Positions 24,904 to 63,966 of a stretch of 64,000 bases of DNA are shown piece after piece. The position numbers and the translations under genes are program-made. Under the pieces are notes generated by a model, which saw only the letters and a program-made list of their open reading frames with translations, was not told the origin of the DNA and searched no databases. How positions within the stretch are numbered: the first letter of the stretch is position 1; the number at the start of each line of letters is the position of its first letter. The stretch covers positions 1 to 64,000 of IMG/VR virus record IMGVR_UViG_3300023174_000101; one strand, written 5' to 3'. The stretch comes from a virus.

Positions 24904-25739
24904 TATACTCTCTCAACCTCCCCAATCTGGTTCTGTACGTCGTACTTGATTAGATCTAAGTAGTGCCTTAAGCGCATCTGCACAGCCTGCCTCGTGACTT
25001 TGTACTTCCTAGATAATTCTGCGAAAGTCTCTTCTTCTTCCGCTAAGTATCGGCCTTCTAGAATTCCCATGTCCTTGGCTGGCACATGCTTCTTCATAGC
25101 CTTAATAGCTAGGTCGTACACCTTATTCATGTCCATTTTATACTGGATTTCTGACTCTATGTCAGTTCCCGACTTGAGCATATTGCCCAGGGCACGCTCG
25201 TAATTGTCGGCTTCATTTGGATCGCCAAGGATTTCAGAAGTAGACTTTTCGCCAGCTATCTGCTGCAGCACACGCTCCACCTGATCGTCGGTCACTTCAA
25301 GAAAGTCCTTAACTTCGCCTACGAGTTCGCTCCACCCAAGCTTCCCGCAGTGCTTAGATTGCACGTATGCGCATGCCTTCGAGAACGTGTGCGACAGTGC
25401 GTACGAGCCCTCTGTGCTGATATACTTCACGTTGCGCGTCTTAAATGTGTAGTACTTGTATATTAAGTTCTTGATGTGCCAGCGGGCAAAGGTATTCAGG
25501 TTAACGCCACGGCTTGTGTCGAACGACTTCACCCCGGCCATGAACCCGATGCACCCCTCTTGGAACAGGTCCTCGCGCAGGTCATTGTCGTGTTCATTAG
25601 CCTTAACGATGTCGCCAATGATTGCGTAAATGAGGCCGTAATTTTCCTTAAGAAGCTTCTCACCTGCCCACTCGTCGCCATTCTGATAGCGCGTGACGAG
25701 TTCGTATTCCTGCTCTCGATTAAGTGCGTACTTACCCAT
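24903..25739 (-). CDS. Sigma-70 family sigma factor (RpoH/sigma32-like layout)
   Basis: Region 1.2 LNREQEYELV..YQNGD, region 2 EDLFQEGCIGFMAGVKSFDTSRG.NLNTFARWHIK, region 4 TFAELSRKYKVTRQAV. Confidence 0.9.
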   Translation of the reverse strand: MGKYALNREQEYELVTRYQNGDEWAGEKLLKENYGLIYAIIGDIVKANEHDNDLREDLFQEGCIGFMAGVKSFDTSRGVNLNTFARWHIKNLIYKYYTFKTRNVKYISTEGSYALSHTFSKACAYVQSKHCGKLGWSELVGEVKDFLEVTDDQVERVLQQIAGEKSTSEILGDPNEADNYERALGNMLKSGTDIESEIQYKMDMNKVYDLAIKAMKKHVPAKDMGILEGRYLAEEEETFAELSRKYKVTRQAVQMRLRHYLDLIKYDVQNQIGEVERV

Positions 25740-32214: not shown

Positions 32215-32940
32215 TTAGGCACCAGTGCTACCGAACCCGTTGTCGTTCCGGTCCGATGGCTTAAGCTTCGACACTGGATTGATGTGCAGATGCGGCACAC
32301 GGTACATAAATAGCATCTGCGACACACTGTTCCCCGCCTTAATGGCTACCGGCTCGTCAGACAGATTGTGTACCATGGTGAAAATCTGTCCACGGTATCC
32401 GGGGTCAATTACGCCGGGGAGTACGATGAGCCTGCGCTTGGACGTGCTGGACCGCGCCTGCACCACCCCGTACAGGTGATTAGGCATCTCGAGGAACACG
32501 TTGGACGGAATGTCCAGGAATCCACGCGGCGGACAGACCACATCCTGGTCGCATACCAAGTTCCAGCCAGCGTCACCCTGCAGTTTGGGTGATAGTATCT
32601 GGATTGGGGCTCCGTCGCGGTCGAGCAGGTAGATCTCATTCGCGGACTCGACCAGCTTGTGTCTAGCTTCATCTACGTCATCCGGGAGTACCAAGTATCG
32701 GTAGTTATTCTGCTCAAGCAGGACACTCTTCGACTCGCTGTAGAGGTCTTCCGCCTTGTCGAAGTCAATGGCGAGCCGGTACTCCGGGATGTGTACATCA
32801 AACGTGAGCTTCTGCCCACGGATGTACACGGACTTGTCCCACCAAAGCACATGACTGTGGGGGAACATGCTCCACAGCATTGGGGACATGCGGGCCTTCA
32901 ACTCTGCGTCACGCTCTACGATTTGGATTAGGTCAGTCAT
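32215..32940 (-). CDS. dut: Trimeric dUTPase with N-terminal Vsr/DUF559-like extension
   Basis: GDAGWNL, ARSS, GVIDPGYRG, SQ, RNDNGFGSTG motifs 1-5. Confidence 0.9.
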   Translation of the reverse strand: MTDLIQIVERDAELKARMSPMLWSMFPHSHVLWWDKSVYIRGQKLTFDVHIPEYRLAIDFDKAEDLYSESKSVLLEQNNYRYLVLPDDVDEARHKLVESANEIYLLDRDGAPIQILSPKLQGDAGWNLVCDQDVVCPPRGFLDIPSNVFLEMPNHLYGVVQARSSTSKRRLIVLPGVIDPGYRGQIFTMVHNLSDEPVAIKAGNSVSQMLFMYRVPHLHINPVSKLKPSDRNDNGFGSTGA

Positions 32941-33415
32941 TTCCTAGGGTCATCAGCTTGATGTCGTTAACAATTGACTGTAGGCACATGTCCACAGCCG
33001 CTTCGTCCTTAAGGTCTACATGAAACCACCGGTTTGCATCCACGCGATTGTTCAAGTACACGGACTTGCCGCGCTCGATGTTGGTGAACATCATCACAGT
33101 CTTTCCACGCTGACATGCCATATCGATTTCAATAGGCGTGCCAACTGTGGTTACACCCAGGGGCATGGCCACCACTACAATGTCGGCACTGTCCAGGGCC
33201 TCGCGGTTCACGTGCTCGATGTAGATGTCGCGGCGCTCAACCGGCGTGCCCATGAGCGTAGGGCGATAGGCGGTGGATGGGTCGAACACGACCGCGCCCA
33301 CGCCCGACTCCTGTAGCTTCTTCGTGAACTTCTCGCGCCAGTTGGGGAAGTCTACGCCTAGGTCGATGGGTCCTGCGGTGTAGATTAGTGCGCCATTCTT
33401 CAAGTTATTTACCAT
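32933..33415 (-). CDS. Nucleoside 2-deoxyribosyltransferase / dNMP N-glycosidase-like protein
   Basis: IYTAGPID..W, ADIVVVAM, GTPIEIDMA..GK.V pattern. Confidence 0.75.
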   Translation of the reverse strand: MVNNLKNGALIYTAGPIDLGVDFPNWREKFTKKLQESGVGAVVFDPSTAYRPTLMGTPVERRDIYIEHVNREALDSADIVVVAMPLGVTTVGTPIEIDMACQRGKTVMMFTNIERGKSVYLNNRVDANRWFHVDLKDEAAVDMCLQSIVNDIKLMTLGND

Positions 33416-33968
33416 GACTGTATGCCCTCTTCTGAATGAATTTGAATTGCGAAACTATCTGCTCGTCTGCGCCGCTCATGATTGTATAGTACGGCACTGT
33501 GCGGCGATTCAGTACGTCAAACACCCCGGCCATGTTCTTCTGTGCACGGGCGAGCCTCTCCAAGAACTCCTGCGTATTGTCCCTGCCGTCGCGAGACCTG
33601 AACCTGGCACGGTTAACCAGTGTTACGGGATCGCCCACGTTCACTTCAATCACGACCGGATTGTAAATCCAGAACTGGTCGATCATGTAGTTCACTTGGT
33701 CGTCGAACCTTGGAAAACCGTCCACGATGATGTTGTCTTCCGTGGAATTGTCTATGGTCTTGCAAAGCTCCAGGCGAAGTGCCTCCTCGCCGGGGAACAG
33801 GTCGGTTTTGGCCATTTCACGACCTGACTGTTCATCGATAAGCTTACGTGCGATATCCCCAGTGGATACACGCAGCGATTGATTGTTGAACACTTTGGAT
33901 GCCACCACGTTCGCGGTGTACGTCTTTCCGGAGCATGGGAGTCCGATAAAGAAGTATACGTTCTTCAC
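33405..33968 (-). CDS. Adenylate-kinase-like nucleoside monophosphate kinase
   Basis: GLPCSGKT P-loop, STGDIAR, IIVDGFPR. Confidence 0.85.
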   Translation of the reverse strand: MKNVYFFIGLPCSGKTYTANVVASKVFNNQSLRVSTGDIARKLIDEQSGREMAKTDLFPGEEALRLELCKTIDNSTEDNIIVDGFPRFDDQVNYMIDQFWIYNPVVIEVNVGDPVTLVNRARFRSRDGRDNTQEFLERLARAQKNMAGVFDVLNRRTVPYYTIMSGADEQIVSQFKFIQKRAYSHGK

Positions 33969-37812: not shown

Positions 37813-40770
37813 TCACGCCAACACCCTCGCCCAGTGGCGCAGCAGCGCTTGTGCCTGCTTCACCACTTCACTGCGCGTCTTGCCGCGCACCAGCGGAAAC
37901 AGCCCCGGCACCGGCTCCCAGCGTGCCCCAGAGAGATACGCACGGTATTGCTCAAGGTGCGCCTCGTACTCGGAGGCGGGTTCGCTTGCCGCGCCGTCGA
38001 AAGCGACGGGCTGCACTTCGTGGACTTGAACGCGCAACCACCGTTCCGTGCTCACTTGTCCCTCTCCGTCACCAGCGGCGTGGCGCGGACGGTATCCGCG
38101 TAAGTGCTTGGAGCGTGCCGGTACATATGCGCCGCGCACGCCTCACGCTGTTTCTCCGCCGCGTCCTTGGCCATTGCCCGCCCATATCCTTCACGCAAGC
38201 ACTTTTGGCATGTAGCCTGGGGCACGCATCGCTTTGGAGCGCGGGAGCAATCATATCCCCAATCGATGATGCTCTGCCATGCCTTCAATAGCTCATTCTC
38301 CTCCTTGAGCTTCTTGTTCTCTTCCTCAAGCAGCCTGTGTAGCTCGAACTTGGCAACACGTTCCTCGTACCGCTTGTTCTCCTGCTCAAATACGGCCTGA
38401 GCCCGTGCCTCCATAATTTCCTTAGGTGGGCGTTCCGGCACGGGCTCGTCATTCAGCTTATGGTACATACATAGGCTACTATCCGAGCATCCGCATTCAT
38501 CTGTCCAAGGCGTAGTATGAACACTTGGAAAGAACGGTGCACGCCTGGTCATGCCGCATACTGGACATTCAGCGCTTTTCATTCTTGTCTCCAGGCTCTG
38601 CGAACACCTTAGGGATGTCGTATACGTGCTTGCCACCGGAGAAGCTAGCTTTCCAGCACAGGCCGTGTAGCACCAAATTCTTCTCTATAGCCGCAATTAC
38701 GTCCTCGTTGCCGCTCCAGCCGCCAGTGATGAAGGTATACTTGCGCCCGTATCTGCGTGCCATACCTGGGTATAACCACAAACTGCGTGCATACTCAAGT
38801 GCGCCACGAAGGTCTGAACTGTTCCAAGTTGCAAGCTTACGGAGTTCTGCCCTGGAGGGATATTGGCTTAGTGTCACGTTCATTTCTTCTTCCCTGTCAT
38901 GGTGTCTACAATTTCAACTAGACGCTCAAATGTACTACCAGATGCAGCACTTTCCCTGTGGCTTTGGATGAATTCAACTAGGATTTCTAGTTTATCCGCG
39001 TCTGATTGCATCCACGCCATTTCTTGTGCAAAATTCATGCCCATGCCGCCTGTGTCTTCATGCGGGTTAATGCCGCGCTCGCACAGTGAGCGATCCCACG
39101 AATTCCGCATCTGCTCAGGCTTTGCCCCAAGTATAATGGCTAGGTTCCGGTAGTAGCAGACTGCATCCACCCGCATCTGGTCGAGGTCTAGTCTGGACTC
39201 GAGCCGTTTGAATTCGTCCCTGAGTCTCTGATTCTCTACACGCAACTCCTTGCACCTGAGGCGTAGCCCGTGCTCACTAAGCTCGTCGTCGTCGTACGGG
39301 GCAATCTCACTCATTCTTCACCCTTCTTAATGGCGGCATCGATACGGCGCAGGAGCAGAATAAGTCCATCGGTCTCGGAGTCTACATTTGGATGGAGCGT
39401 TAGTGCGTCCAATGTGGACAGCTCTGTGTGCGCCTCCTTAAGTAGGACACGGAGCTGTTTTATCTCCGACCCAAGACCGCCAACCCTCTCCTGCTCCTTG
39501 TAGATTTTCTTCACTGTGCGTCGGAGGTCATTACGTACGCGGCAGCACACACACCTTTGCCACTCAGGTGGACAATCGCAGTCGCTATCTTCAATCAGTG
39601 TCTCGATTGCGCCCTCAATGTCGGCCTCAATCTCCTGGAGCGGCGTCTTGTCACTCATCGTCGGAGCTCTCGTATTGGCTGACTTCGACCTCATTCAACG
39701 GCGCATGGAGTACGTTGCCCTCCGTTAGCGCATCGAAGAATTCCCACTCAACGTCACCCGCATCAGGGCCGTCGTCATTTATACGCTCCCATGCAAGGTG
39801 GCGAGCCTCACTTTCAGACTTTGCCTTGACTTGGATGTGGATCGCACCGGCAATTGGAACAGACACTACGTACGTGTGCTTTTTCATGGCCTATCCTTAT
39901 TTGGTCGGCGTACAATAACAACGCTTGCATCCATGACCAGCGGAGAAGAACGCTGCATTTGGTATCCACACGCGGTTTTTAGTCCTAGCAGGATTCGACG
40001 TAAACTTTAGTCCGCAAATCGTACGGCGCGTTATAGGGTTTAATAAATGATTCGTAGTAAACCCAGTATTTACGCAGGTAAGGAGCGATTTTATGTTCAT
40101 GGCTGGTCCTTGTCCTCTTCGTATCTCTCTAGGCAATCGGTGAACTTCATGTCCTGATGCTGCGGACAGTGGGAGTCATCCTCATATGGGGGTGTGTGCA
40201 GGAATGCGCTGATACGCTTACGCAGCGCATCTACAGCATCGATTACGTAGAACCCACCACGGGTGGGAGGAGGATACCAAGCCTTTAGCGCCCCAACATG
40301 GTCGGTCTCGTCGCGTATGGTGTCAAGCATCCGGTACGATTCGTTCAGTAGTGTTGTTGCCTGGCGCACTTGGGCCTTTGCGTGGAGGAAGTCTGCATAG
40401 TCTAGGCCGTCAAGCAGGCCGTCCTCAGAGTACGCCTTAATGTTCTGGAGCGCGGCCTGCGTGGCCTCAAGCTGGGACTTTAGTGCACGGTTCTCCTTCT
40501 GCACGTCCTCAAGCTTGTCCTGCAGGCGGCGGCGCTCTTCCTGCGAATACATCAGTGCATCTCGACTACCTTTCTCTTCGGTCGTCATGCGCCCTCCTCT
40601 GGGGCCTCGACCACCTTCTGCAGGAACACGATCTGCCGCACACAGTCAGCCACCGCCATGACCATGGCGACCATGCCTTCCTGCGTCTTGTCCGATGGGT
40701 TGAATTCGAACGTGATGGTTACGCGCTCGCTCGTGTCTGTCTTACGGTCACTCTCAAGTAGAACTCTCAT
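37813..40770 (-). other. Chain of small hypothetical ORFs (37813-38055, 38052-38582, 38569-38883, 38880-39314, 39311-39658, 39651-39887, 39897-40100, 40097-40588, 40585-40770)
   Basis: Consecutive overlapping start/stop codons on the - strand, typical accessory/early region. Confidence 0.6.
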
Positions 40771-43475
40771 ACCTTTAACCCCTTTGCAAGGCCCATTAAC
40801 TGCTCTGGTGTGATGCACTCCGTCCAACGTAGGCTGGTCGTACGGCTGGTGTCCAGGTCCAAGTCGAACTTAATATCGGACGTACCGCCACGGCGCTTAT
40901 CCAGGAATGCGATACGGTTGCCCTTGTCCTTGGCCTCGGCCATCTGGTCGGGCGTCTTCTCTTGGAGCAATAGTACATCGTCTGCGTCCTGTGCAATCTG
41001 GTACGAGCCGCCGATGTTCTCAATCTTGCCGGTCTCGCCCGCCACGTAGTTAGACCGGTTCTGCTGGGCGATACACACGGAGCATATGCCCATGCCCTCT
41101 GCGATCTGGTTCTTCATCACCTTGGATGCGCGGCCAATTACCTGCTCACGTGAAGCGCCTTTATCCTCAGGTCCCGGTGATACCAACTGGATATAGTCCA
41201 CAAATACGGCCTGAATCCCGTACTTGAAGTGGTATTCGTCTACGATTGCGAAGATTTCGTCAATGGAGCCAATCTTCGGCTTCTTGATGTAGAACTGCGA
41301 CGATGCGATGCGTTCCATCGCGAGCTTTACCTTCAAGTACTGCTCGTCGTTGAGTAGACCTGCCTGTAGCTTCGTGTTGTCGATGCCCGACAGCATCGAA
41401 ATCTGGCGGAACGAGGTCTCAATCTCGTTCATTTCGAGGGGAATCCAGAGCGTGGGAATCTGGTCCTGGGGCTGTGGGGAGATAGAAATCGCCGTCGCCA
41501 TTTGCAGTGCTAGCAGGGACTTACCTACGCCTGAATACGCGGAGATTACGACTTGGTGCCCCTTCTGCAGTCCGGACAGGCCCAGGGTTAGTCCAGTCAG
41601 ACACACATTCATCTGGCCGTCCACGTCCCGGAGGGTGGAGAAGTCGAACCCCACGACCGCGCTCTTGCGGGCCATACGCTCCTCAAGGTCCACGCGTACG
41701 CAGTCCATGAGGGAGATTGGATTGCTCTTGTCGTCGCGGCGTATCTCCATGCTGGAGACCATTTCACGCCGATACTTGGACAGGATGTCGTTCGTGGGCT
41801 TCTTGAGGTCGCCAAGTGTGGCCTGCAGTACACGGGACTGGTCAATGCCCATGCGCCGCCTGTAGAGGTCTACGATGCGGTGCAGTGCGTCTTGGAACTG
41901 ATACTTGGCCTCCGCCACAAGCAGCATGTCGATGTACTTGTGGAGGTCTGGGAACTGAGGGTATGCAATCTTTAGCTGGTCGCGTACCACCTGTACGGTG
42001 ACCGAATCAGCTAGCCCGTCTTCGCGTGCCCTGCGGTGCACATGCTCAATCGCATTATATACGTACTGATGCCCACCTACCGTGAACACTTTATTGTCGG
42101 TGATGGACTGCCGAATGGTAGACCAGGACTTTTGGTTCAGCAGTGCGTGCTGGAGTACTACCTGCTCCGCGTCCCGGTTCATCAGGCCCGTGTCGCCAAG
42201 TTTAGTCTCCACCACGTACGACTTGATGCTGAGTGGCTCTACCCCGATTGCGCGGGACAAGTACTCGGCAGTCAGGTCCAGCTGTACGTCCGGGAGCCGA
42301 ATTAGGTGCTCCTTGAGGTCCTTGACCAGGGAGAACTTATTCTCCGTAGTAAGATTGCCGTGCGCGTCCCGGCGCATGTCCACATAGAACTGGACTGGGA
42401 GTACAGCCGTGGCAAAGATGGTGTCTAGTGCCTCCTTGCCGAACTCGCGCACGATACCATCGGGCTGCTTTCCCTCGGGCATCTTTGTGATGAGCACATT
42501 GATGTCATGGAACTCATTGATGTAATCCATGAGTCGCACGGAGGCTGCGCGGCCAGCATTGTCGCCGTCGAATGCGACACGCACTTCCTTGACACCGTAC
42601 TCACGCAGGAGCTGAATCTGCTCCTCGTGAATCTGCGTACCCATGACCGCCACGCCGCCAGAGGCAATCGCCGCCTTCTGGCCTTCGCAGATACGCATAA
42701 CGTACCCGTTCTTACGGAGGTCCTTGCGGGCAACGTTGAATCCGAACAGGAGCTTGTGGCTGAACAGTGGGTGGCGGTTGCTCGTGCCCACATACTTGCC
42801 GCCGAAATCGGGTGGTGGATTCAGCGGCTTATTGTAGAAGCGTGCCACCCGTCCGTTCTGGTCACGGATTGGGTAGACTAGGGCGTCGCTCCACGCGAGC
42901 CGGTTGGTAAACTCGAGCTTGTCGATATCATCCTGGCTGATGCCGGGGAACTTGGCATGCAGGTGCTGGATTATCTGGTCCGTGGAGATGCAGTACCCAA
43001 CATCGTACGTCACAATCTGGTCAATGTCGAATCCAGTATCCTGGATGTACCACTCGAGCATCTGCTTGTTCGCGAACAGGGCGTTGGTGCAGTACTTCGC
43101 CGCCTCTTCGCAGATGTCTTGATATCTGGCCCGCTCAATCTCCTCCGCTGTTGGCGGGCGGTGATATGCACTGATATCGATGTGATACGTGGCCGCGAGG
43201 CGATTAATAGCCTCGGTTACGGTGATACTATGGAAGTTCTGTGCCCAAGCTACTACATCGCCACCCGCCTGGCACCCGAAGCACTTGTAGAACTGTAACT
43301 GGGTGTGAACACCGAATGACGCGCCCTTAGACTCCGAGTGAAACGGGCAGAACCAGAACTTGTCGTTTCCCGTTTCCTTAGCCGGTGCACCAAGGTCATC
43401 CGATACGACTTGGATAATATTCAGCCTTTTACGTAGCTCTGTCCGTGCTGACTTTACGTCAGTGATATACATCAT
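40767..43475 (-). CDS. DnaG primase - DnaB helicase fusion
   Basis: CHC2 zinc finger CPFH...CFGC, TOPRIM CEG and FDGDNAG, DnaB N-domain AEQVVL, Walker A AYSGVGKS, VDYIQL, QQNR, QDAD. Confidence 0.92.
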   Translation of the reverse strand: MMYITDVKSARTELRKRLNIIQVVSDDLGAPAKETGNDKFWFCPFHSESKGASFGVHTQLQFYKCFGCQAGGDVVAWAQNFHSITVTEAINRLAATYHIDISAYHRPPTAEEIERARYQDICEEAAKYCTNALFANKQMLEWYIQDTGFDIDQIVTYDVGYCISTDQIIQHLHAKFPGISQDDIDKLEFTNRLAWSDALVYPIRDQNGRVARFYNKPLNPPPDFGGKYVGTSNRHPLFSHKLLFGFNVARKDLRKNGYVMRICEGQKAAIASGGVAVMGTQIHEEQIQLLREYGVKEVRVAFDGDNAGRAASVRLMDYINEFHDINVLITKMPEGKQPDGIVREFGKEALDTIFATAVLPVQFYVDMRRDAHGNLTTENKFSLVKDLKEHLIRLPDVQLDLTAEYLSRAIGVEPLSIKSYVVETKLGDTGLMNRDAEQVVLQHALLNQKSWSTIRQSITDNKVFTVGGHQYVYNAIEHVHRRAREDGLADSVTVQVVRDQLKIAYPQFPDLHKYIDMLLVAEAKYQFQDALHRIVDLYRRRMGIDQSRVLQATLGDLKKPTNDILSKYRREMVSSMEIRRDDKSNPISLMDCVRVDLEERMARKSAVVGFDFSTLRDVDGQMNVCLTGLTLGLSGLQKGHQVVISAYSGVGKSLLALQMATAISISPQPQDQIPTLWIPLEMNEIETSFRQISMLSGIDNTKLQAGLLNDEQYLKVKLAMERIASSQFYIKKPKIGSIDEIFAIVDEYHFKYGIQAVFVDYIQLVSPGPEDKGASREQVIGRASKVMKNQIAEGMGICSVCIAQQNRSNYVAGETGKIENIGGSYQIAQDADDVLLLQEKTPDQMAEAKDKGNRIAFLDKRRGGTSDIKFDLDLDTSRTTSLRWTECITPEQLMGLAKGLKV

Positions 43476-48421: not shown

Positions 48422-49546
48422 TTACTGCTGAGCCTTGCCCTTCAATACTTCGTCACGAATCTTCTGTAGGATTGCCTTGTCTGCAGCACGCAGGGCTGCA
48501 ATGAAGGCATCCTCACCGTTCGCCTTGATGGTGTCGTACGTATACCAGGATGAAGACTTGCCAATGACGCCAAGCGCCAGGGCGGTCTGCACTACGTCCT
48601 TATACACGTCTACGCCAGCATAGTAGACCTGGCCAGAGTCGTCCGTCACGTTCTCGAAGTAGATATCGTACTGGATTGGCGTTACAGGGATGGCTGCAGT
48701 CTTATTCTTGTGCAGCTTCGCCTCTACCGTTACGCCGATACGACGCTCTTCGAACTGGCCGGTGATGCTGGGCACCTTCTTGATAATGTCGCCCCGCTTC
48801 TTAACCTCTATGGAGTAAGTCTCATAGAACTTAAGTGCATTACCGCCAGTGTGTTCCTCGGGGCTGCCGAACATAACCATGGGCTTTGCACGCTTCTGGT
48901 TAATCATCCACACAACCGACCGCTTGAACCCGTTGAGTAGTGCGGTAAGCTGTTGCAGACCCTCGGACATCATCACCGATGAAGTCGCCTTCTGTCCCTG
49001 GCCAATCGTAGCTGTCATACGAGAGGAGGGGATAAGCGCGGGGATTGAGTCCACGATGATGAATTCGATACCGTTCTGTACGAGAATCTTCATGATATCG
49101 AAGTAGTCCTCGCCAGACAGAATCTTCTCCGGTGAACTCTGGAACAGGAGGAGCTTGTCCGTGTCGATGCCTACGGACTTGGCCATTGCGGGTGAATACG
49201 TACCCTCTGCGTCGAGGAACGCCACCCGACCCTCTCCATCCGTGTTGCCCACGCATGGGGTGAACTTTGAGCGCTGGATGTTCGCGGCCACCGTCAGTGC
49301 GGTGAGTGTCTTACCAGTGCCCTCCCATCCCCATGCGTTTACTACGCGACCACCAAGGAGACCACCCACACCCAAGTACCTATCCATGGACAGAATCCCG
49401 GATGGATACAGGTATGTAATGTCCTGTGTCTCTGAAAGGGACGAAGCCACGGAGGCTACATCTGCTTTCAGATGCTTGTTAATCGCCGTAGCAAGGGCAA
49501 CTAAGTCCTTGCCTTTTGGCGTATCCTTAAAACGATCGTCAGCCAT
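48422..49546 (-). CDS. recA: RecA/UvsX recombinase
   Basis: SGILSMDRYLGVGG, GWEGTGKT, FLDAEG, IIVDSIPAL, INQ.R, TGGNALKFY, KNK. Confidence 0.95.
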   Translation of the reverse strand: MADDRFKDTPKGKDLVALATAINKHLKADVASVASSLSETQDITYLYPSGILSMDRYLGVGGLLGGRVVNAWGWEGTGKTLTALTVAANIQRSKFTPCVGNTDGEGRVAFLDAEGTYSPAMAKSVGIDTDKLLLFQSSPEKILSGEDYFDIMKILVQNGIEFIIVDSIPALIPSSRMTATIGQGQKATSSVMMSEGLQQLTALLNGFKRSVVWMINQKRAKPMVMFGSPEEHTGGNALKFYETYSIEVKKRGDIIKKVPSITGQFEERRIGVTVEAKLHKNKTAAIPVTPIQYDIYFENVTDDSGQVYYAGVDVYKDVVQTALALGVIGKSSSWYTYDTIKANGEDAFIAALRAADKAILQKIRDEVLKGKAQQ

Positions 49547-49549
49547 GGG

Positions 49550-50653
49550 TTAGCCCCGTGCGCCGCGCATTTCACCGAGCTTAGACTCAAGAGCCATGCG
49601 GAGGGTCTCAAGCTGATGCTCGGACAGCTTGTAGTACTCCGCGTGACCTACCTCCTTCTTGAGGATAGGGAGCAGAGTCTGAATCATTCCCATGCCCTGG
49701 AACTCGGGCTGAGAGTTCAGCCATGAGCTGAACGCATCGACCACGTTCTTGGACGCCTGGTCGCCATTTACGGCCTTAACCTCAACGTTCGGGGTGGCCG
49801 CGTTGACGATCGGCAGCTTAGGAGCAGCCACCGGGGTGGGGGCAGCTGCAGCTACCGGTGCAGTCATGGGGGCTCCAGCCACCGCGTTAGCGATGACGTT
49901 GGCGATGCCAGCTGCGCCGTTCATAAAGACTGCAGGATTGTTGGATTGTCGCAGCTGGAACTGGGCCTGTCCAGCAGGGAGCCCGTACTGTGCCTGTGTG
50001 TTGCCCTCTGGCAGTGCGGTGGAGCCATCGCCGCCACGGATTGCAGCCACGAGCTTGGGCGTGTCCGTGGGCGCACGGTCCCGCATTGCGACCGTCAGCA
50101 CGGACTTTGCCTGGTCCTCAAGCTCTGGCGTCACGTCGAACGCAGAGGCATCGAGGCGCAGGGAGTTATAGCGCGTCATCTTGCGCTCGCCAGTCTTCCA
50201 CACACGCCAGTCACAGCGGCGGAGGTCCTGCCCGCGAGTGTCCTGTGTGTCGAACCACTTGTCCATTTCCTGGAAGATCTGGTTACCGCCCTTGAGCACC
50301 TCCACCTGCGTGGTGCTGTGGTTGTACACAGGCAGCATGTGGATGGGGGTCTTGGGGAAGTCAACCCGCTTGCCCTGCCGGTTCGTCTGCTCCTCGCCTG
50401 AGAGCATTGACCAGAGGGGGTCGGGAGTGCTGCACAGATAGCAACCTGCGCCGGAACGGTTAGTCGCAGTGCAGGTCTCGTAAGCGAACTTACGCACCGT
50501 CTGCGGCTGGCCGTTAGGCCCAGCAGTCTTTACCTCCTGAATCTTGTGGACCCAGACGGTCTGCGGCTTTGCGGACAGGGGGCGAAGGGTAACAGGCTCG
50601 CCCTTGACTTCAACATAAACGGACTGCTTCGTAGAATCAGCTAGAAAACCCAT
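49550..50653 (-). CDS. Single-stranded DNA-binding protein (gp32-like) with Ala/Pro-rich tail
   Basis: TLRPL...WVHK...C....GCYLC zinc motif, adjacent to recA. Confidence 0.55.
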   Translation of the reverse strand: MGFLADSTKQSVYVEVKGEPVTLRPLSAKPQTVWVHKIQEVKTAGPNGQPQTVRKFAYETCTATNRSGAGCYLCSTPDPLWSMLSGEEQTNRQGKRVDFPKTPIHMLPVYNHSTTQVEVLKGGNQIFQEMDKWFDTQDTRGQDLRRCDWRVWKTGERKMTRYNSLRLDASAFDVTPELEDQAKSVLTVAMRDRAPTDTPKLVAAIRGGDGSTALPEGNTQAQYGLPAGQAQFQLRQSNNPAVFMNGAAGIANVIANAVAGAPMTAPVAAAAPTPVAAPKLPIVNAATPNVEVKAVNGDQASKNVVDAFSSWLNSQPEFQGMGMIQTLLPILKKEVGHAEYYKLSEHQLETLRMALESKLGEMRGARG

Positions 50654-50669
50654 GGTAGTGTATATCCTT

Positions 50670-50819
50670 TTACTTAGAGAAATGAATTGTGAGAATGTCG
50701 CCGTCTTTAACTTCGATTGATTTGTCCAGCTCTAGGTTAAACTTTGTACCGTCCATACAGACGATCAAAGCCTTTCCTTTAGCTGCTTTAATGACTTGTA
50801 CTTTATCGCCGTTTTTCAT
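50670..50819 (-). CDS. 49-aa hypothetical protein absent from the ORF track
   Basis: MKNGDKVQVIKAAKGKALIVCMDG...; TAATG overlap with the PurZ-like stop. Confidence 0.55.
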   Translation of the reverse strand: MKNGDKVQVIKAAKGKALIVCMDGTKFNLELDKSIEVKDGDILTIHFSK

Positions 50820-51997
50820 TAATTGACTGTATCACTGTGATTATCTGGATTATAGTATCTGCCTTCTGAATCAAATGGTAGCGCCATTTGGCCCCCAGCC
50901 GCACGAATGGTTTCACCGTTACGAGTAACGATTTCACCGTTCTTTGCGCCCGTTCCGACTAGCGTTACCGGTACACCTCCCACTTCTTCTACCCTACGAA
51001 TGAAGTTCTTGCTCTTCTCTGTCAGCGTGGAAAAATCACCCTTCTTGCAATTGTCGTGCCAGTCGATATACTGGATGAAATTCACTGCAATTTGTGTAGG
51101 ACCACACACGTTCACGAAGTTACGGAATAGAGCATCCGACCACGTAAACACACGACGCACTCGCTTAGTCACAGTAGTCCTCTCGTACAACTCCATTGGA
51201 CCACCACACTCTGACATTACGTCTGCCCAGGTGACCTCCTTGGCGTCAAAGGGCACTGGACCTGACCACCCTACAGTACCGTCTTCGGCTACGAAGTTAC
51301 CCACCCGGATGGGCCAGGTGCGTACGATACCGATTACCTCGCCCACCGCCTTGGGAGGCACACCCATACCGCCTAAGAAGGAACTGGTGTTGGTACCGCC
51401 AGACGTGCAGTATGGGAAGTCGATGCCGTGGGAGATATCCAGGCCGAACCCCTGGTGGCCCTCATGCAGGAAGGTCTCGCCTGCAATAAGTCTGCTGTGA
51501 ATTAGGTGGGTGGTGTTGCAGGTGAATGGCTTGAGCCACTCAATGTCCTTGGAGAGGCGTACACCCTCCTCGCGACGAATACGACGGGCCTTAGCAGCGC
51601 CCACACCCTGCATTGTACCACCGATGCGGCCTAGGTGCTGCTTCTCCCACAGGACGTCCTCTTCCTCTACAACCACTGCACGGTCGGATACGAACAGACG
51701 CTCTGGGGTGAGCTTAAACTGCTCAATCTCCTTCTTGAGGATGTCGAGCGAGAGCGTGGACTCTGGCCCGATGATGAGCTTGGTTGATGGATTTAGGACA
51801 CCGGTCGGAATCTGCTTGACGAGAATCTCCGTGCCGTCGTCTAGTACAGTAACGTGGCCCGCGTTCGCACTGAACGAACAGGTGGCCCACTCAGGCTTGT
51901 CCTCTAGTACGATGTACGCAAGCATCTTGCCCTTGCCGCAGGAGCCCACGCCAGCATCTAAACCAATATTGAACTTGCCCTTCTGTAAGTATCGCAC
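50819..51997 (-). CDS. purZ: Adenylosuccinate-synthetase paralog with PurZ signatures
   Basis: GSCGKGK (Ser in place of the PurA Asp of GDEGKG), NAGH, EGHQG, PYCTS, RTWPIRVGN..SGP, ERTTVTKRVRRV, NFIQY in place of TKLD. Confidence 0.75.
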   Translation of the reverse strand: MRYLQKGKFNIGLDAGVGSCGKGKMLAYIVLEDKPEWATCSFSANAGHVTVLDDGTEILVKQIPTGVLNPSTKLIIGPESTLSLDILKKEIEQFKLTPERLFVSDRAVVVEEEDVLWEKQHLGRIGGTMQGVGAAKARRIRREEGVRLSKDIEWLKPFTCNTTHLIHSRLIAGETFLHEGHQGFGLDISHGIDFPYCTSGGTNTSSFLGGMGVPPKAVGEVIGIVRTWPIRVGNFVAEDGTVGWSGPVPFDAKEVTWADVMSECGGPMELYERTTVTKRVRRVFTWSDALFRNFVNVCGPTQIAVNFIQYIDWHDNCKKGDFSTLTEKSKNFIRRVEEVGGVPVTLVGTGAKNGEIVTRNGETIRAAGGQMALPFDSEGRYYNPDNHSDTVN

Positions 51998-52018
51998 TTG
52001 TATTGCCTTTCGGTTAGA

Positions 52019-52303
52019 CTACTTTATAAAGGACGACATGGCGTTCTGCAGTATCTCTACCATGTCGTCATTCTTTGGTGGATTTACTATTCTGCCTACT
52101 ACTTTGCTGCCAGACAGTATTAGGAAAGTCGGCACAGGCAATACTCTGTGCTTAGCCACGACAGCCAGATCGTCCAGGTCTTGAGTATAAAAGTCAATCA
52201 TTCTGCCGTCTGGTACTAGCTTTAGCAGATCTTCGAACTCTTTGTTGCGTGGACAATCTGGTGTCGTTATGCAGACAACTTCAATCGTGCTTTTTCTTGC
52301 CAT
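52019..52303 (-). CDS. Thioredoxin/glutaredoxin-like protein
   Basis: TPDCPRN active-site-like segment, VPTFLI cis-Pro motif, next to RNR. Confidence 0.7.
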   Translation of the reverse strand: MARKSTIEVVCITTPDCPRNKEFEDLLKLVPDGRMIDFYTQDLDDLAVVAKHRVLPVPTFLILSGSKVVGRIVNPPKNDDMVEILQNAMSSFIK

Positions 52304-55300
52304 TAAGATATGTGGCAGACGCTAAACCCACATGACTTGCAGGACTCACAGCCGCCACCCATTTCTAGAGTGTTTTGATTGCACTCTGGGCATAGCTGTC
52401 CTCCTGCATCAGAATAATTAGCCACGATATTCTCTTCCACAGGCGCAACCTCTGCAGCGGCGGGCACTTCATTGGTCTGCGGCTGTGTGTCGGCTTTCTT
52501 CTGGGTGGATAGAGCCTGGTGGGACCTGCACCCGTCACGATACACAGTGATTCCCTTACAACCGTTCTGCCAGGCAAGTATGTATGCGTGGCGCACGTCG
52601 TCCTCGGTCGCGGAGTTCGGGAGGTTGATGGTCTTCGAGATTGAGTTATCGATGTGCTTCTGCCATACAGCCTGCATCAGGACGTGGTCCTTGTGCTGGA
52701 CATCATTAGCCTGCGCAAATAAGAGCTGAATATCCTCAGGGACATCCAGGCAACCCATAAGGCTATTGTGAGCAAAATAATACTCATATACGCTGTTTCT
52801 CTTAGACTCAGAGAGACTGTTGAGCCAGCTTTCGAAGAGCGGATGAGACTCATACATAATCATGCCAGCCTGCTCACGGCGTAGCAACAAGCCGAATACG
52901 GGCTCAATGCTTGTAGAGCAACCTGCAATCATCGCAGTCGTACCAGTAGGAGCGACTGTTGTACGGCAAGCGTTACGCATTGCGGACCATCCCTCCTTCT
53001 GTACCTCTGAGCCCTCAAAGGACCCGAATGAGCCACGCTCCTTGCCGAGCTTGAACGAGGCCAAGTCTGCATGCTTACGGTGGAATGATGCGATCTTCTC
53101 AGCAGCAACGCGTGCCTTCTCTGATGCATACGGAATGCCAAGCATGATTAGCATGTCAGCAAAGCCCATGACGCCAAGGCCAATCTTACGATTGGTGTCG
53201 CGGTGCATCTTCTCAATCTCTGCAGTTGCGTAATGATTGAGTTCGATCACGTTATCTAGGAAGCGCACACCCCAGTAAATGTCCTCCTCGTACTGCCTCC
53301 AGTCAAAGCGATCTTCCCAATTGGGGGACACAACATCGGTCTTCACGTACATGGCCAGGTTGTGATGACCAAGAGTACATGCCTCATTTGGGAGTAGCCA
53401 CTGCTCGCCGCAGTTGGAGATAGTGATACCATTGGCGCACATACGGTGTGTGGGCTCAATGGTGAGGCAGAATGTCTCCTCCTCACCGTCGAAGTCGATG
53501 GACACAATTTCGTCTAGGCGGCTAGTCTCACGGAGTTTGTGGTTTATTAGAATATTATTCAGCTTCTCAGTCTTGTAATCCTGGGTGAATCCGATTTCGC
53601 TAGCGAAATATCCGACTGCAGACCCAGTTATGCTAAGCTCATAACACCTGCCGTCAGAGCCATACTTCTGCACTGAACCATCAGGCAGTGTGTGCTTGAA
53701 TAACTCCTCACGCGGCTCACGTGACCGGTCATACTTGGTGCAGTAGATACCGAACCTAGACAGTAGCACCTGTGCGCCACTGATAAGAGCTTCACTCTTG
53801 GATGTTAGACGTACACCGTAGTTACCCTTATGAGAGTCGTAGACTACATGGCCGTCCGCAGAGAATAGACCACGTAGGAATCCTGCCGCCACATCCATGC
53901 TGGCATTGTTCACGCATGCGGGCACTTCCTTCTCACCCGCCTTGTGTGGGATGATACCTAGATCCTTCACAGCCCACGTCCAGATGCGTGACGATAGCAG
54001 CTGCGTGGTGTTGAACTGCTCACGCACGTGGGCTGTAGCTGGGACTCCAACGTGCTTTGCAATTAAGCCGTTAATATGCTCTACGTACGCAAAGTCAGGA
54101 CCGCCAACTACAATGCCTGCCATCCTAGACTTGGACTCCATGTGGCTAAGGTAGCCGTCGCCAATGAGCCAACCGACTAACTCGCCAAAGCTGAAATTAT
54201 CCTGATTGACAGGCTCTCTGTGCATCTTTGGCTGTAGCGTAACTACATCGCCAATGACTAAGTCACGGGTCTCCTTAACTCCAGCCTCAGTTGGCCACCT
54301 GTGATTGTCTGTGGCGCGGACTGAATACCCTCTACGAGTGGTAACCTTATATACCTTCTTTACCCCGGAGTCAATGTACTGGGTGATATCCTCAAGCTCG
54401 CCAGATGGGGATAGCGCCTTCTTTGCAGCATTCTTGCGAACGATATCCACAATTGGCTGTAGACCATTCTCCGTGGCGATTAAAGTCTCACCCGTCACGC
54501 ATGGGTTAGTTGCACTTAGGTGGCCCACGTGTGGTGTCGGGTTTGCGCGGTTTGCGGCGTCGATAAACAGTAGTCCTGGGTCGCCCGTGCTCCAGGCACT
54601 CTTCACCAGATGGTTAAATAACTGACGGGCCTTAATGGTCTTTACGGTCTTGCCATCTGCGCGTGACTTTAGATTCCAATCTAAGTCATTCAGTACTGCA
54701 TTCATGAACTTGTCAGTTGCGGCTACGGACACGTTGAACGATGCGCATGAACCGTCCTGGTGCTTGAACGTGATGAACTCCTCGATGTCTGGATGATCGT
54801 CCGGTAGAACGCCCATGTTTGCACCATTGCGGATGCCACCTTGGGTGATGAACTCGGACATCATGTAGTTCATCAACTTAATGATTGGGATTGGACCCGC
54901 TGCGTTATGTCCGGTGGACTTGACGAGAGCGCCGCGTTCGCGGATGTTGCCGAAGTTAAATCCAGTGCCGCCGCCTGACTTCTGAACTAATGCCTGATTC
55001 TTAAGGGCATCCATGATGCCCTCCATAGAGTCCTGAATCGGCAACACGTAGCAGGCTGCAAGCTGCCCACGGTCACGACCCGAATTTGCAAGCGTAGGAG
55101 TGTTGGGCATCCAACGCAGGGAGCGCATCATTTCATACGCTCGGTCATGCATCTCCTGTGACTTCTCGTGCGTGCCGAATTTGAACTCAGCACGCGAGTT
55201 AAATATGGCCACACGCTCGAACAGCTCTTCTGGTGTTGACTCTATAAACGAGCCATCTGGATTCTTCCAGTAGTACCGCTTCTGTAGGACCTTCTTTGCG

Positions 55301-55332
55301 TTTGTGTTGATCTCAGGAAACTTTGAAGACAT
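52303..55332 (-). CDS. nrdJ: Class II (adenosylcobalamin-dependent) ribonucleotide reductase with intein
   Basis: PNTPTL, LAACYV, GGGTG, RNGANM, TNP|CGEQ, ACTLG, APTGT, SKTIN, KGITVYRDG, C-terminal CPEC..GCESCKSCGFS. Confidence 0.93.
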   Translation of the reverse strand: MSSKFPEINTNAKKVLQKRYYWKNPDGSFIESTPEELFERVAIFNSRAEFKFGTHEKSQEMHDRAYEMMRSLRWMPNTPTLANSGRDRGQLAACYVLPIQDSMEGIMDALKNQALVQKSGGGTGFNFGNIRERGALVKSTGHNAAGPIPIIKLMNYMMSEFITQGGIRNGANMGVLPDDHPDIEEFITFKHQDGSCASFNVSVAATDKFMNAVLNDLDWNLKSRADGKTVKTIKARQLFNHLVKSAWSTGDPGLLFIDAANRANPTPHVGHLSATNPCVTGETLIATENGLQPIVDIVRKNAAKKALSPSGELEDITQYIDSGVKKVYKVTTRRGYSVRATDNHRWPTEAGVKETRDLVIGDVVTLQPKMHREPVNQDNFSFGELVGWLIGDGYLSHMESKSRMAGIVVGGPDFAYVEHINGLIAKHVGVPATAHVREQFNTTQLLSSRIWTWAVKDLGIIPHKAGEKEVPACVNNASMDVAAGFLRGLFSADGHVVYDSHKGNYGVRLTSKSEALISGAQVLLSRFGIYCTKYDRSREPREELFKHTLPDGSVQKYGSDGRCYELSITGSAVGYFASEIGFTQDYKTEKLNNILINHKLRETSRLDEIVSIDFDGEEETFCLTIEPTHRMCANGITISNCGEQWLLPNEACTLGHHNLAMYVKTDVVSPNWEDRFDWRQYEEDIYWGVRFLDNVIELNHYATAEIEKMHRDTNRKIGLGVMGFADMLIMLGIPYASEKARVAAEKIASFHRKHADLASFKLGKERGSFGSFEGSEVQKEGWSAMRNACRTTVAPTGTTAMIAGCSTSIEPVFGLLLRREQAGMIMYESHPLFESWLNSLSESKRNSVYEYYFAHNSLMGCLDVPEDIQLLFAQANDVQHKDHVLMQAVWQKHIDNSISKTINLPNSATEDDVRHAYILAWQNGCKGITVYRDGCRSHQALSTQKKADTQPQTNEVPAAAEVAPVEENIVANYSDAGGQLCPECNQNTLEMGGGCESCKSCGFSVCHIS
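53413..54501 (-). mobile_element. RNR intein, 363 aa, with in-frame LAGLIDADG endonuclease
   Basis: CVTGETLI start, ATDNHRW block B, LVGWLIGDG and FLRGLFSADG, ends MCANGITISN before the Cys of CGEQ. Confidence 0.95.
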
Positions 55333-61385: not shown

Positions 61386-62928
61386 TGGTTAGCGCCTTGC
61401 GTGCAATGTCAGAACAAACCACAGTTCCAGGTGCCCCGCAATGGGATGCTATACGCATGAGAGCCGCACGCAGACGTGTATTTTCTGCCTGCAGCTCGAG
61501 CATTGTCTCAGTGACCCTGCTGTTTGCATTTGCTTGAATTGCTAGTCTGCGAATTTCAGATCTGCTGTTAACGGGCATGTTCAGTCCTTCCACATCACAA
61601 AAGCAGTCAGCCCTATCCCAGCTATAGCACTTCAAGCATAAATTGTACATTACTTCGCCCAGAGTTTCTCTAGCTGGTAGTTGATACTGTGCATCTCAGT
61701 GGCGACCTCATGCAGCATGTCGGAGAAATCAAGCATCGCAGTGGCCAAACTCTCAATGCTGTCTGCGTCTTCAATGTCAGTAAGCGAACAGTCAGCCTCA
61801 GCTGTGCCTGTGATGATTGATACCTTGGCGGCAAGTTCGTCTAGTCGCTTCTCTAGCTTGGCAGTGATTTGCTTCTTGTTAGGCTTGGGTACCTTCTTTG
61901 CTGTCTTAGTGTTTGGCTTCTTCTCTACCTTCTTAGTCTTCTTGCTCATTTTATCCTCCAGTTTGTATTCGTACTCGTATCCATGCTGTTCAAACGCACG
62001 ATTCAGTGCATCTAAAGTCAGCTGATTGAACGCTTCGTCCGTCCACTCATCCCATCCCAATGCAGCAACAAGCTTATCCTTGAAGTCGTCAGGCACATCA
62101 AAAATAATGGTGCACGTGCCGTCTTCGTTGTCTTTAACTTCTACGACCTTAATGCTGCCTATGTCTTTGATGTCGCCAGATGACATTTACTTTACCCTCA
62201 TGAGTCTTACTACTGCATGAACCCTGGATTTCGCATCTTCTAGGCTTGAAGCAGGACCACGAGCAATTACCGCACCTGCAGCCCTACTAACCTGCCAATA
62301 ATAGTACACAGGTCCACTCGGTGAATCAGTCTCCCTGATTGACCATGAGTACCTACCATCAAGGCCCCAATGTCTACCGTCAACTATGGTCTTCATTTCG
62401 GCTCCGGGGTTGGGATTGAACGTACACGTTGCGCATATTCTGCGCCAACAGTAGTCTTAGCATTGTACGTGGGTGAAATTTCTACAGTTTGTGCGGCAAG
62501 CTCGCGCATAAGCTCCGCCCCACGCTTGAACGCCTCAATCTGTGCCTTGCTCATTTTGCGCATAATTTACCTATACTCATCACATTCACACTTGGTGCAT
62601 CCGGTAAGCGGCAGGTGGTATACGATAGAGTGTGTGCAACGGTCACAGTCACCGAATGCGTTAGTGCACACGTGCGCAGGCTTCTTGTCGTTCTCTTTCA
62701 TGTCTGATCTCCTGGATCTTTGGGCTGGTCGTTTAGTACAATTGCTGCATATGTCTTAAGCTCTGACGAATCCGGTAGATGCTTAATTGCCTCGGCAAGT
62801 AAACTTGCGAGTAACTTGTTACGCACGTTTAACTGGTCAATCTTGTCGTTACACTTCTTGGCGAGATCGCACATCAGGCACGGCTTCTTGCCTGGAGAAT
62901 CATCCTTACACTTTACGCAGTCGCCCAT
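61375..62928 (-). other. Small hypothetical ORFs (61375-61650, 61650-62186, 62187-62396, two short ORFs in ~62393-62701, 62698-62928)
   Basis: Abutting - strand ORFs. Confidence 0.55.
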
Positions 62929-63488
62929 TATTTAGACTTCGCCTCCGGTGGATAACCGCCAAGGATACGGTCAATATACCACTTCGCCTTCTGCAGGTCC
63001 TCAGTCCCGCCCTTCCGCTTCCAGCGCCACAGGTACTTGATAGCATTGCCCGTACAGAAAGCCTCGATGCCGTCCAGGCTCTCGGTCGCGGCCTCAATGG
63101 CGTCAATACACTCAATCTTTCCGCCGTAATGTGCCGGATGGTCCACATTCTCAAATAGTTCACGAATTTCTTCAGACGTATACTCATTAGCAGGTTCAGA
63201 TTTTAGCTTGTTATATGCAGCCATAGCCTCCTCCCTTGCAGCTTCAAGTCCACGCACAGTGCTGCCAGTAGCATGCAACAATTGGCCTTCAACGGTGACC
63301 CATGCGTTCCAGATTATCGGATCTAGTTCATTCCCGTATGTGTCAATATCTACATCTACAGTAAGACTGCTAGCATCATCCGGTGTCATGATCCATCGGG
63401 AGTGATTTGCATCAAAATCTACATGCTCTTCCCACTTCGGTCCATCGCTTGTCTTCTTACGCTTCGCAGGTGCATTCTTGGTCTTCAT
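62928..63488 (-). CDS. DUF3310 (T7 gp1.7-like) domain protein with N-terminal extension
   Basis: VDHPAHYGGKIECIDAI...FCTGNAIKYLWRWKRKGGTEDLQKAKWYI. Confidence 0.8.
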   Translation of the reverse strand: MKTKNAPAKRKKTSDGPKWEEHVDFDANHSRWIMTPDDASSLTVDVDIDTYGNELDPIIWNAWVTVEGQLLHATGSTVRGLEAAREEAMAAYNKLKSEPANEYTSEEIRELFENVDHPAHYGGKIECIDAIEAATESLDGIEAFCTGNAIKYLWRWKRKGGTEDLQKAKWYIDRILGGYPPEAKSK

Positions 63489-63966
63489 ATCCGCCCTCGC
63501 ATTTTGCGCAGTTATACCACTTAGTGCTGTTAAGTGCTTCGCGTAGCTGCTGCCTAACATTAGGGTTCTTGTTGAGTGCACGTACAAGCTGGGCAAGCAG
63601 TTGCTCGTCTGCCCAATCCTCTACATTCTCTGCATCATTCAGATTAAGTTCACTCTGCTTCTTGAACTTTGCACTGCCCTTCGGCATAAACCATGATGCC
63701 CCACATGGCTCACACTTTACACCAACTTGGTCTGCAAGCCTAGGATTAAACTGGTAAAACTGTACAACACCACCGTATGCACGGCAGTGTGGACATGTCA
63801 TATCTACAAATTCAGGCTCAGGTGCGTATATGTGCAGCTTATCATTACTAATGGTCATGCCTTGCAAGGTTATACTGTCATTATTCGCCAGCATCGTATT
63901 GTCAGATACGGTAATGTTGTACTGATGCGATACTGCGCCAGGTGCACCTGCAGGTGTAATATGCAC
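63457..63966 (-). CDS. Hypothetical zinc-ribbon protein (start uncertain)
   Basis: CPHC, CEPC, CAKC motifs. Confidence 0.5.
   Translation of the reverse strand: MHITPAGAPGAVSHQYNITVSDNTMLANNDSITLQGMTISNDKLHIYAPEPEFVDMTCPHCRAYGGVVQFYQFNPRLADQVGVKCEPCGASWFMPKGSAKFKKQSELNLNDAENVEDWADEQLLAQLVRALNKNPNVRQQLREALNSTKWYNCAKCEGGYEDQECTCEA

Follow-up and report, generated by a model that had tools for sequence, protein, structure and literature searches.

The viral record IMGVR_UViG_3300023174_000101 raises the question of whether a phage that combines a synthetase of the 2-aminoadenine (Z) pathway with a family C DNA polymerase replaces adenine in its genome and, if so, which enzymes it would use. The stretch analyzed (the window) comprises the first 64,000 nucleotides (nt) of a linear viral contig in IMG/VR that is 98,360 bp long and comes from a large uncultured freshwater phage, and it carries an open reading frame (ORF) on the minus strand at positions 50819 to 51997 that is predicted to encode a PurZ-type synthetase. 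To our knowledge, all characterized phages with Z genomes use either a PolA-type DpoZ polymerase or a PrimPol. The gene content described below suggests, as the probable answer, that this phage makes a Z genome by means of a PurZ-clade synthetase, DutZ/DmtZ-type editing of the nucleotide pool, a PurB and a kinase encoded by the phage itself, and a replicase of family C.

The synthetase ORF, 50819 to 51997(-), encodes 392 amino acids (aa) and begins with a GTG start codon that follows, after about 10 nt, a GAAAGG ribosome-binding site; the N terminus of the protein aligned with the N termini of its homologs. Its product gave full-length domain matches to Pfam PF00709 (2e-38) and to PHROG 1211, "2-aminooxy adenylosuccinate synthetase" (1e-55). 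All of the motifs named in an earlier reading made without database searches (the sequence-only reading), GSCGKGK, NAGH, TTVTKRVRR, NFIQY, and PYCTSG, were found in the ORF, where they belong to the full-length homologous domain and are not chance occurrences. The GSCGKG P-loop occupies residues 18 to 23 and places a serine at the position of the catalytic aspartate in GDEGKG. Among the 120 nearest cluster representatives in a database of 5.8 billion proteins, a P-loop of the form GS[TSCEG]GKG was present in 114 and GDEGKG in none, the P-loops of the remaining six not being matched by the search pattern. The archaeal and long PurA controls have the GDEGKG P-loop.

For the remaining motifs, the query was aligned with the proteins of S-2L, phiVC8, Ghobes, Archimedes, Preamble, and vB_BpsS-140, eight archaeal short PurAs, and four long PurAs. 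The guanine-specifying aspartate lies within TKLD in the long PurAs, G[IV]D in the archaeal PurAs, and AD or LD in the PurZ0 proteins; the same site reads NF[CA][NQ]Y in PurZ (NFCNY in phiVC8 and NFAQY in S-2L) and NFIQY in the query. From the loss of this aspartate, ATP or dATP is predicted to be the phosphate donor of the query. A published sentence has PurZ0 and PurZ preferring "ATP and GTP, respectively" (PMC12884076), whereas PDB titles and a bioRxiv introduction state that PurZ uses ATP or dATP; the order in the former is taken to be a slip. Loss of TKLD, which the sequence-only reading had used as a mark of PurZ, does separate PurZ from both PurZ0 and PurA but is not common to the Ser-type group, as PurZ0 keeps the aspartate. 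The aspartate-site motif is TTVTK in the PurZ rows, TTVTN or TTVTQ in PurZ0, and T[TV]TxR in PurA. NAGH, although present, is generic across the whole PurA family and hence does not discriminate. The residue that follows TS varies family-wide: PurA has S, archaeal PurA K, PurZ0 N or S, and most PurZ proteins R, and the clade of the query has G or S; PYCTSG, earlier picked out as an unusual variant, is therefore typical of that clade rather than aberrant.

Phylogenies with PurA, PurZ, and PurZ0 sequences were built from 74 rows as a quick LG+G4 tree, a quick posterior mean site frequency (PMSF) tree, and a completed, careful IQ-TREE analysis under LG+C20+F+G4, with support expressed as ultrafast bootstrap/Shimodaira-Hasegawa-like approximate likelihood ratio (UFBoot/SH-aLRT) values. 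In all three trees the query and three close relatives grouped at 100/100 within a 55-row PurZ clade (100/100) that includes phiVC8 and S-2L. PurZ0 (100/100), Ser/Gly forms from archaeal metagenome-assembled genomes (MAGs), and the GDEGKG PurAs lay outside this clade. The query thus falls with PurZ and not with PurA or PurZ0, and the PurZ-type identity that had been proposed for the synthetase is borne out by its P-loop, motifs, and position in the trees. The three closest homologs of the query are 56 to 60% identical to it.

An AlphaFold2 (AF2) model of the query had a predicted local distance difference test (pLDDT) score of 90.4 and template modeling (TM) scores of 0.87 to phiVC8 PurZ and 0.85 to S-2L PurZ, enzymes that have been solved with dGMP and ATP or dATP. 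Across solved PurA and PurZ structures the scores ranged from 0.85 to 0.93, with archaeal PurA as the best fold match (0.91 to 0.93). Ranking of solved structures by sequence likewise placed Pyrococcus horikoshii PurA first (3e-39), followed by S-2L PurZ (1e-32), phiVC8 PurZ (1e-30), and Archimedes PurZ0 (5.5e-16). As P. horikoshii PurA uses IMP and GTP, this ranking would suit an enzyme of auxiliary purine metabolism, in which a PurA-like protein and PurB boost the conversion of IMP to AMP, or its deoxy equivalent, for a large phage with canonical DNA. Together, PurA and PurB form the IMP-to-AMP branch of cells, the contig encodes a protein of each kind, and the phage has further nucleotide-supply genes (NrdJ, ThyX, and dCMP deaminase). 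The replacement of the catalytic aspartate by serine, the loss of the guanine-specifying aspartate, and the placement inside the PurZ clade at 100/100, apart from the GDEGKG archaeal PurAs, all argue against such a role, and a DmtZ-like enzyme with Asp12, described below, would oppose any raising of adenine nucleotides. Boosting of AMP is accordingly held to be very improbable.

The sequence-only reading had noticed no enzymes for the exclusion of dATP in the window. The window does, however, carry genes for a kinase, a DmtZ-like protein of nucleoside deoxyribosyltransferase (NDT) fold, and a DutZ-like dUTPase at 32.2 to 34.0 kb. Pfam scans, which took in about 70 ORFs across the whole contig and covered those above about 110 aa, showed that the three genes overlap or abut, spanning positions 32215 to 33968. 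The first of the triad, at 33405 to 33968(-), encodes an adenylate-kinase-fold (d)NMP kinase (AAA_17, 2e-10; ADK, 1e-8) that is predicted to convert dZMP to dZDP. Its position and order are the same in the complete genome of an uncultured phage, G046, and an adk-dut pair is annotated in Bacillus phage vB_BpsS-140. No PHROG match was obtained for the kinase or for the DmtZ-like protein.

The DmtZ-like protein, encoded at 32933 to 33415(-), is predicted from its Pfam NDT match (2.9e-6), its residues, and its AF2 model to be a dAMP N-glycosidase and a dAMP-to-Z deoxyribose-5-phosphate transferase. The characterized DmtZ is Ghobes gp53, with the triad Tyr6, Asn77, and Glu103; mutation of Tyr6, Asp12, Pro57, Asn77, or Glu103 abolished or reduced its activity, a Val-Gly pair binds phosphate, and Asp12, the mutation of which abolished activity on dAMP, was proposed to confer dAMP specificity (PMC12884076). 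The window protein shares Tyr6, Asp12, Pro57, Asn77, Val98-Gly99, and Glu103 with Ghobes DmtZ, including the uncharged residues of the 5'-phosphate pocket, and these residues are invariant in 26 homologs. Its AF2 model (pLDDT, 89) found its best folds among NDTs and DNPH1, the same neighbors as reported for DmtZ. Matches to the protein were identified in 9 of 50,697 phage records, all of them actinophages, including Gordonia phages Ghobes, Archimedes, and Frizzle and Streptomyces phages Hiyaa, Keanu, and Spocter; phages of both these host genera belong to the groups with PurZ-type genes.

The DutZ-like gene at 32215 to 32940(-) overlaps the DmtZ-like gene by 8 nt and is the sole dUTPase-fold gene in the 98 kb. 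Residues 113 to 240 of its product form the dUTPase fold (PF00692, 3.5e-25), and the protein is predicted to be a dATP/dGTP/dUTP diphosphatase. The assignment is tentative and was based on the gradient of E values across 755 phage records: the closest matches among phages are the dUTPase-like proteins encoded by PurZ0 actinophages (1e-19 to 1e-24), and most canonical phage dUTPases, from T5-like, Bacillus, and Staphylococcus phages, match at 1e-6 to 1e-10, at least nine orders worse. Ghobes DutZ hydrolyzes dATP, dGTP, and dUTP (PMC12884076), a breadth that would explain why the contig has a single dUTPase-fold gene. By analogy, one DutZ-like enzyme could serve as MazZ, as part of DatZ, and as Dut. 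The first 112 residues of the protein (window positions 32605 to 32940, minus strand) constitute an N-terminal extension with no Pfam or PHROG match; the G046 homolog aligns to the C-terminal 140 aa alone, and the extension is not conserved in that phage. A fused NDT domain of the type seen in Arthrobacter phage Wayne was considered for this extension and rejected, as the NDT is a separate upstream ORF.

Beyond the window, 21 kb from purZ, the contig encodes a PurB at positions 73468 to 74787(-). This is a full-length adenylosuccinate lyase, matching PDB 8jbd at 1.7e-113, and it carries the SSAMPHKRNP signature.

The polymerase and the classical helper enzymes were sought by six-frame hidden Markov model (HMM) searches of the whole 98-kb contig. 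A DnaE, the family C polymerase alpha subunit, is encoded with an intein at 25732 to 30321(-), with matches to PHP, DNA_pol3_alpha (4e-76), finger, HHH_6, OB, and Intein_splicing. The statement that family C is the only polymerase held for all 98,360 bp, in which PolA, PolB, and Prim-Pol were not found. PF00476, the profile for DpoZ, was unmatched in the contig and in the genomes G046, G010, and G026. For DatZ-type HD proteins, PF12917 (YfbR-like) and PF13023 (HD_3) were unmatched in the six-frame translation of the contig and in complete G046. For MazZ, MazZ-2, DUF550, and DUF5664, PF03819, PF04447, and PF18909 were unmatched in the contig, the latter two profiles also matching no control genome. 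The lack of datZ and mazZ noted for the 64 kb therefore extends to the entire contig and to the complete, syntenic G046, and the rest of the available genome, to 98 kb, yielded no datZ, mazZ, or dpoZ.

A gene set of this kind bears on whether replacement of adenine would be complete. Under partial substitution, dZTP would be made, the DutZ- and DmtZ-like enzymes would leave dATP in the pool, and a nondiscriminating DnaE would produce a mixed A/Z genome. Full replacement of A by Z is reported to need both dZTP synthesis and dATP degradation (PMC12697855), and neither a DatZ-type dATP triphosphohydrolase nor a Z-selective DpoZ was found in the contig. In the PurZ0 actinophages described as Z-DNA phages, however, DutZ with or without DmtZ replaces DatZ/MazZ (PMC12884076). 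The window has homologs of both DutZ and DmtZ, and PurB and the kinase would push flux to dZTP. A mixed genome is thus viewed as unlikely, while carrying the most weight among the alternatives considered, ahead of AMP boosting and then of a purine other than Z.

The arrangement is not a one-off. No relative was retrieved when 20 kb of the window was compared by megablast with the 50,697 phage records or when IMG/VR was scanned with a single sequence, but a profile-based IMG/VR scan succeeded, returning 236 PurZ-like loci. The best 80 of these were kept, and the 50 most related PurZ-bearing records were searched whole. DnaE was present in 26 of the 50, full PolA in 12, a DatZ-like HD protein in 12, and a phage PurB in 11. 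Nineteen records were at least 90% complete; eight of them had DnaE, and a DatZ-like HD protein occurred in none of those eight. G046, an IMG/VR genome of 160,708 bp with terminal repeats (100% complete), is syntenic with the window over the whole module, in the order NrdJ, PurZ, unnamed gene, RecA, UvsW, primase-helicase, kinase, DmtZ, DutZ, ThyX, unnamed gene, DnaE, and Mre11/Rad50. PolA, PolB, Prim-Pol, HD, and MazG were not found in this complete genome, and DnaE is its sole polymerase. DmtZ-like genes were also identified in G026, which is DnaE only, and in G035, in which no polymerase was detected. Two further records, G007 and G028, carry DnaE with a DatZ-like HD protein and without PolA, and the DnaE set-up therefore occurs with both dATP-removal kits. 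An additional 89 PurZ-like loci were found in MAGs and genomes of many phyla. Overall, the arrangement recurs in many uncultured phages as well as in the cultured vB_BpsS-140.

Two side observations were made on these sequences. A number of records with PurZ and DnaE, several of them jumbo sized (G002 to G005, G008, G009, G014, G017 to G019, G024, G030, G032, G033, G039, and G050), contain a truncated PolA-like protein, encoded by a roughly 400-aa ORF whose match to the PolA profile is confined to positions 245 to 380 (E values of 1e-5 to 1e-15). In a Methanophagales MAG, a PurZ-group gene (L175, at G051:C41:1797-2669) has glycine at the catalytic position (GGEGKG) and one internal TAA stop. 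A viral sequence from IMG/VR (L054) groups with this gene, and the same MAG has an ordinary GDEGKG PurA.

From the homology, signature residues, clade membership, gene content, and conserved synteny described above, we infer the enzymatic activities of a pathway, the presence of Z in virion DNA, and the incorporation of Z by DnaE. PurZ would join dGMP and aspartate, with ATP or dATP as phosphate donor, into N6-succino-2-amino-2'-deoxyadenylate, which the phage PurB (contig positions 73468 to 74787) would cleave to give dZMP. The kinase (33405 to 33968) would convert this to dZDP, and the host NDP kinase would complete the synthesis of dZTP. The DutZ-like enzyme would hydrolyze dATP to dAMP and dGTP to dGMP, the latter feeding PurZ, and the DmtZ-like enzyme would destroy dAMP, either by releasing adenine or by passing its deoxyribose-5-phosphate to free Z. 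The intein-bearing DnaE replisome is proposed to place Z opposite T with no selectivity of its own because dATP would be gone from the pool. It would in this respect resemble the nonselective PrimPol of cyanophage S-2L, which depends on DatZ. A more far-reaching version, to which we give less credence than not and offer as speculation, is that DnaE replisomes are a third, independently recruited type of Z-DNA polymerase, perhaps the commonest in large or jumbo uncultured phages, with a DnaE that has evolved a preference for dZTP ("DnaE-Z") and a host-independent PurZ-PurB-kinase route.

A number of points weigh against a Z genome made in this way. Besides having an archaeal, IMP- and GTP-using PurA as its best solved sequence match, the query is just 27 to 29% identical to characterized PurZ enzymes, and it has glycine in its IxSTxxG phosphate loop, where most relatives have serine or threonine, as well as the G in its TSx motif. 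The PurZ of G046 lies in a different PurZ sub-clade from the query, by which the trees indicate that the history of the module is mosaic. For the helper enzymes, the Pfam NDT score of the DmtZ-like protein (2.9e-6) is just under the curated cutoff, Trp124 of Ghobes DmtZ lies in a part of the comparison where the window protein did not align, and the DutZ-like protein could be a plain dUTPase. CheckV estimated the 98,360-bp contig to be 61% complete, implying a genome of about 160 kb, and the missing part could hold a DatZ or another polymerase; the gene content of G046, a complete relative, speaks against a hidden gene of either kind. A second contig of 167,616 nt carries a 160-aa protein identical to the DmtZ-like protein of the window (32933 to 33415); it probably represents the same phage, with a genome that is complete or nearly so, its length fitting the estimate of about 160 kb. 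Finally, Z in the DNA of this phage and of other DnaE-type PurZ phages is a prediction from gene content.

The surrounding genes were also examined. Next to the synthetase, the neighbors had been listed as nrdJ and thioredoxin on one side and SSB and recA on the other. NrdJ (with an intein) and RecA were upheld; the "SSB" at 49550 to 50653(-) and the "thioredoxin" at 52019 to 52303(-) match no Pfam or PHROG family. G046 (32% identity) and, probably, vB_BpsS-140 have the 367-aa "SSB" protein at the corresponding position. NrdJ, a class II-like ribonucleotide reductase large chain with a LAGLIDADG intein, is encoded at 52303 to 55332(-) (Ribonuc_red_lgC, 2e-115; LAGLIDADG_3; Intein_splicing) and is predicted to act in supply of deoxynucleoside triphosphates. 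A ThyX-like thymidylate synthase at 23567 to 24397(-) (Pfam Thy1, 6e-15) would supply dTMP, and T is expected to be canonical; the protein is 50% identical to the product of the gene adjoining DutZ in G046. A DnaG-type primase fused to a DnaB-type helicase at 40767 to 43475(-) (Zn_ribbon_DnaG, Toprim, and DnaB_C) is the putative replisome partner of DnaE and is not a Prim-Pol. The minus-strand block that contains purB also encodes a dCMP deaminase (contig positions 66416 to 66799), RNase H (74771 to 75265), and an ATP-dependent DNA ligase (76431 to 77789). A 222-aa protein at window positions 62928 to 63596(-), with a C-terminal DUF3310 (7e-17) and a PHROG "nucleotide kinase" match (8e-29), may be a second nucleotide-metabolism gene. 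It was considered as a DUF5664/DUF550-like diphosphohydrolase and rejected, as it has no PF18909 or PF04447 match and its PHROG hits are to "nucleotide kinase" families.

This gene content also bears on the suggestion in the sequence-only reading that the product of PurZ is an intermediate to another, or a further-modified, purine. The clade of the query is a separate branch with substitutions of its own (TSG and IGGT), and many of the neighboring genes have no family assignment. Among the proteins scanned (small ORFs were not searched), no known purine hypermodification gene was found, all of the recognizable helpers fit the Z pathway, and no data pointed to another base. This explanation is given the least weight of the three, with only a slight chance of being correct.

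Each part of the proposed Z system is known, and the combination is new: a PurZ-clade rather than PurZ0 synthetase together with DutZ/DmtZ, a phage PurB, a kinase, and a family C replicase. Literature searches, within the papers searchable, returned no relevant paper linking PurZ with DnaE. If the Z system is as proposed, a bacterial-type Pol III alpha subunit would be able to replicate a fully A-free genome, and the DutZ/DmtZ kit would not be bound to PurZ0. Given the presence of DnaE in 26 of the 50 PurZ records, Z-DNA may then be common in phages of 50 to 430 kb from metagenomes of freshwater, soil, and gut. A processive replicase able to accept Z, combined with a host-independent PurZ-PurB-kinase route, would also make a useful set of parts for synthetic biology.

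The nearest phage record to the query is Bacillus phage vB_BpsS-140 (MH884512), a cultured phage of 55 kb with Bacillus pseudalcaliphilus as host, at 38.5% identity over 96% of the query. Its synthetase is of the Ser type (GSEGKG), like the query, and its module is syntenic, with purA, an unnamed gene, recA, UvsW, primase-helicase, adk, dut, a sigma factor, and dnaE. Unlike the window phage, vB_BpsS-140 is a small siphovirus, gave no DmtZ-like match at an E value of ≤1e-3, and has no purB annotated in the 35 kb examined. The papers on this phage have the gene annotated as an ordinary purA and do not discuss DNA modification, and it is not mentioned in the searchable supplement text of PMC12884076. 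As vB_BpsS-140 is in culture, the question of Z is directly testable in it. The dnaE of this phage consists of two overlapping ORFs, one of 363 aa and one of 852 aa (L006:28885-32492; MH884512, about 48884 to 52491), both 34% identical to the DnaE of the window; no coding sequence is recorded there, and a frameshift, a sequencing error, or a genuinely split gene could account for this.

Of the solved enzymes, P. horikoshii PurA (PDB 2D7U/5K7X), the best match by sequence and by fold, has the same compact architecture as the query. Unlike the query, it retains GDEGKG as well as the GTP-site aspartate, and archaeal enzymes with GDEGKG group in a clade apart from the query. With phiVC8 and S-2L PurZ, the query shares its clade (100/100), serine in place of the catalytic aspartate, TTVTK[RK]xRR, NFxQY in place of TKLD, and the short-PurA fold (TM scores of 0.85 to 0.87). 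As in S-2L, the polymerase of the window phage is not a DpoZ, and specificity would therefore have to come from editing of the nucleotide pool. In contrast to the characterized PurZ phages, the contig lacks DatZ-type HD, MazZ/DUF550, PolA, and PrimPol; its replicase is DnaE, PurB and a kinase are encoded by the phage itself, and its genome is larger by a factor of roughly four.

With the PurZ0/DutZ/DmtZ system of Gordonia phages Ghobes and Archimedes and Arthrobacter phage Wayne (PMC12884076), the window shares adjacent homologs of dUTPase fold and NDT fold and the lack of DatZ/MazZ. It differs in its synthetase, which has GSCGKG where PurZ0 (PDB 7VF6) has GSEAKG, has lost the aspartate of the GTP site, lies outside the PurZ0 clade (100/100), and matches 7VF6 at only 5.5e-16, and it has DnaE rather than the PolA-type DpoZ-1, with DUF5664 not found in the contig. 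In the survey by Poubanne et al. (2026; PMC12884076), DutZ and DmtZ were enriched in PurZ0 genomes, DatZ and MazZ-2 or DUF550 were typical of PurZ genomes, and two PolA-type DpoZ groups tracked PurZ0 and PurZ. By pairing a PurZ-clade synthetase with homologs of DutZ and DmtZ, the window therefore presents a combination that crosses this dichotomy between PurZ0 and PurZ.

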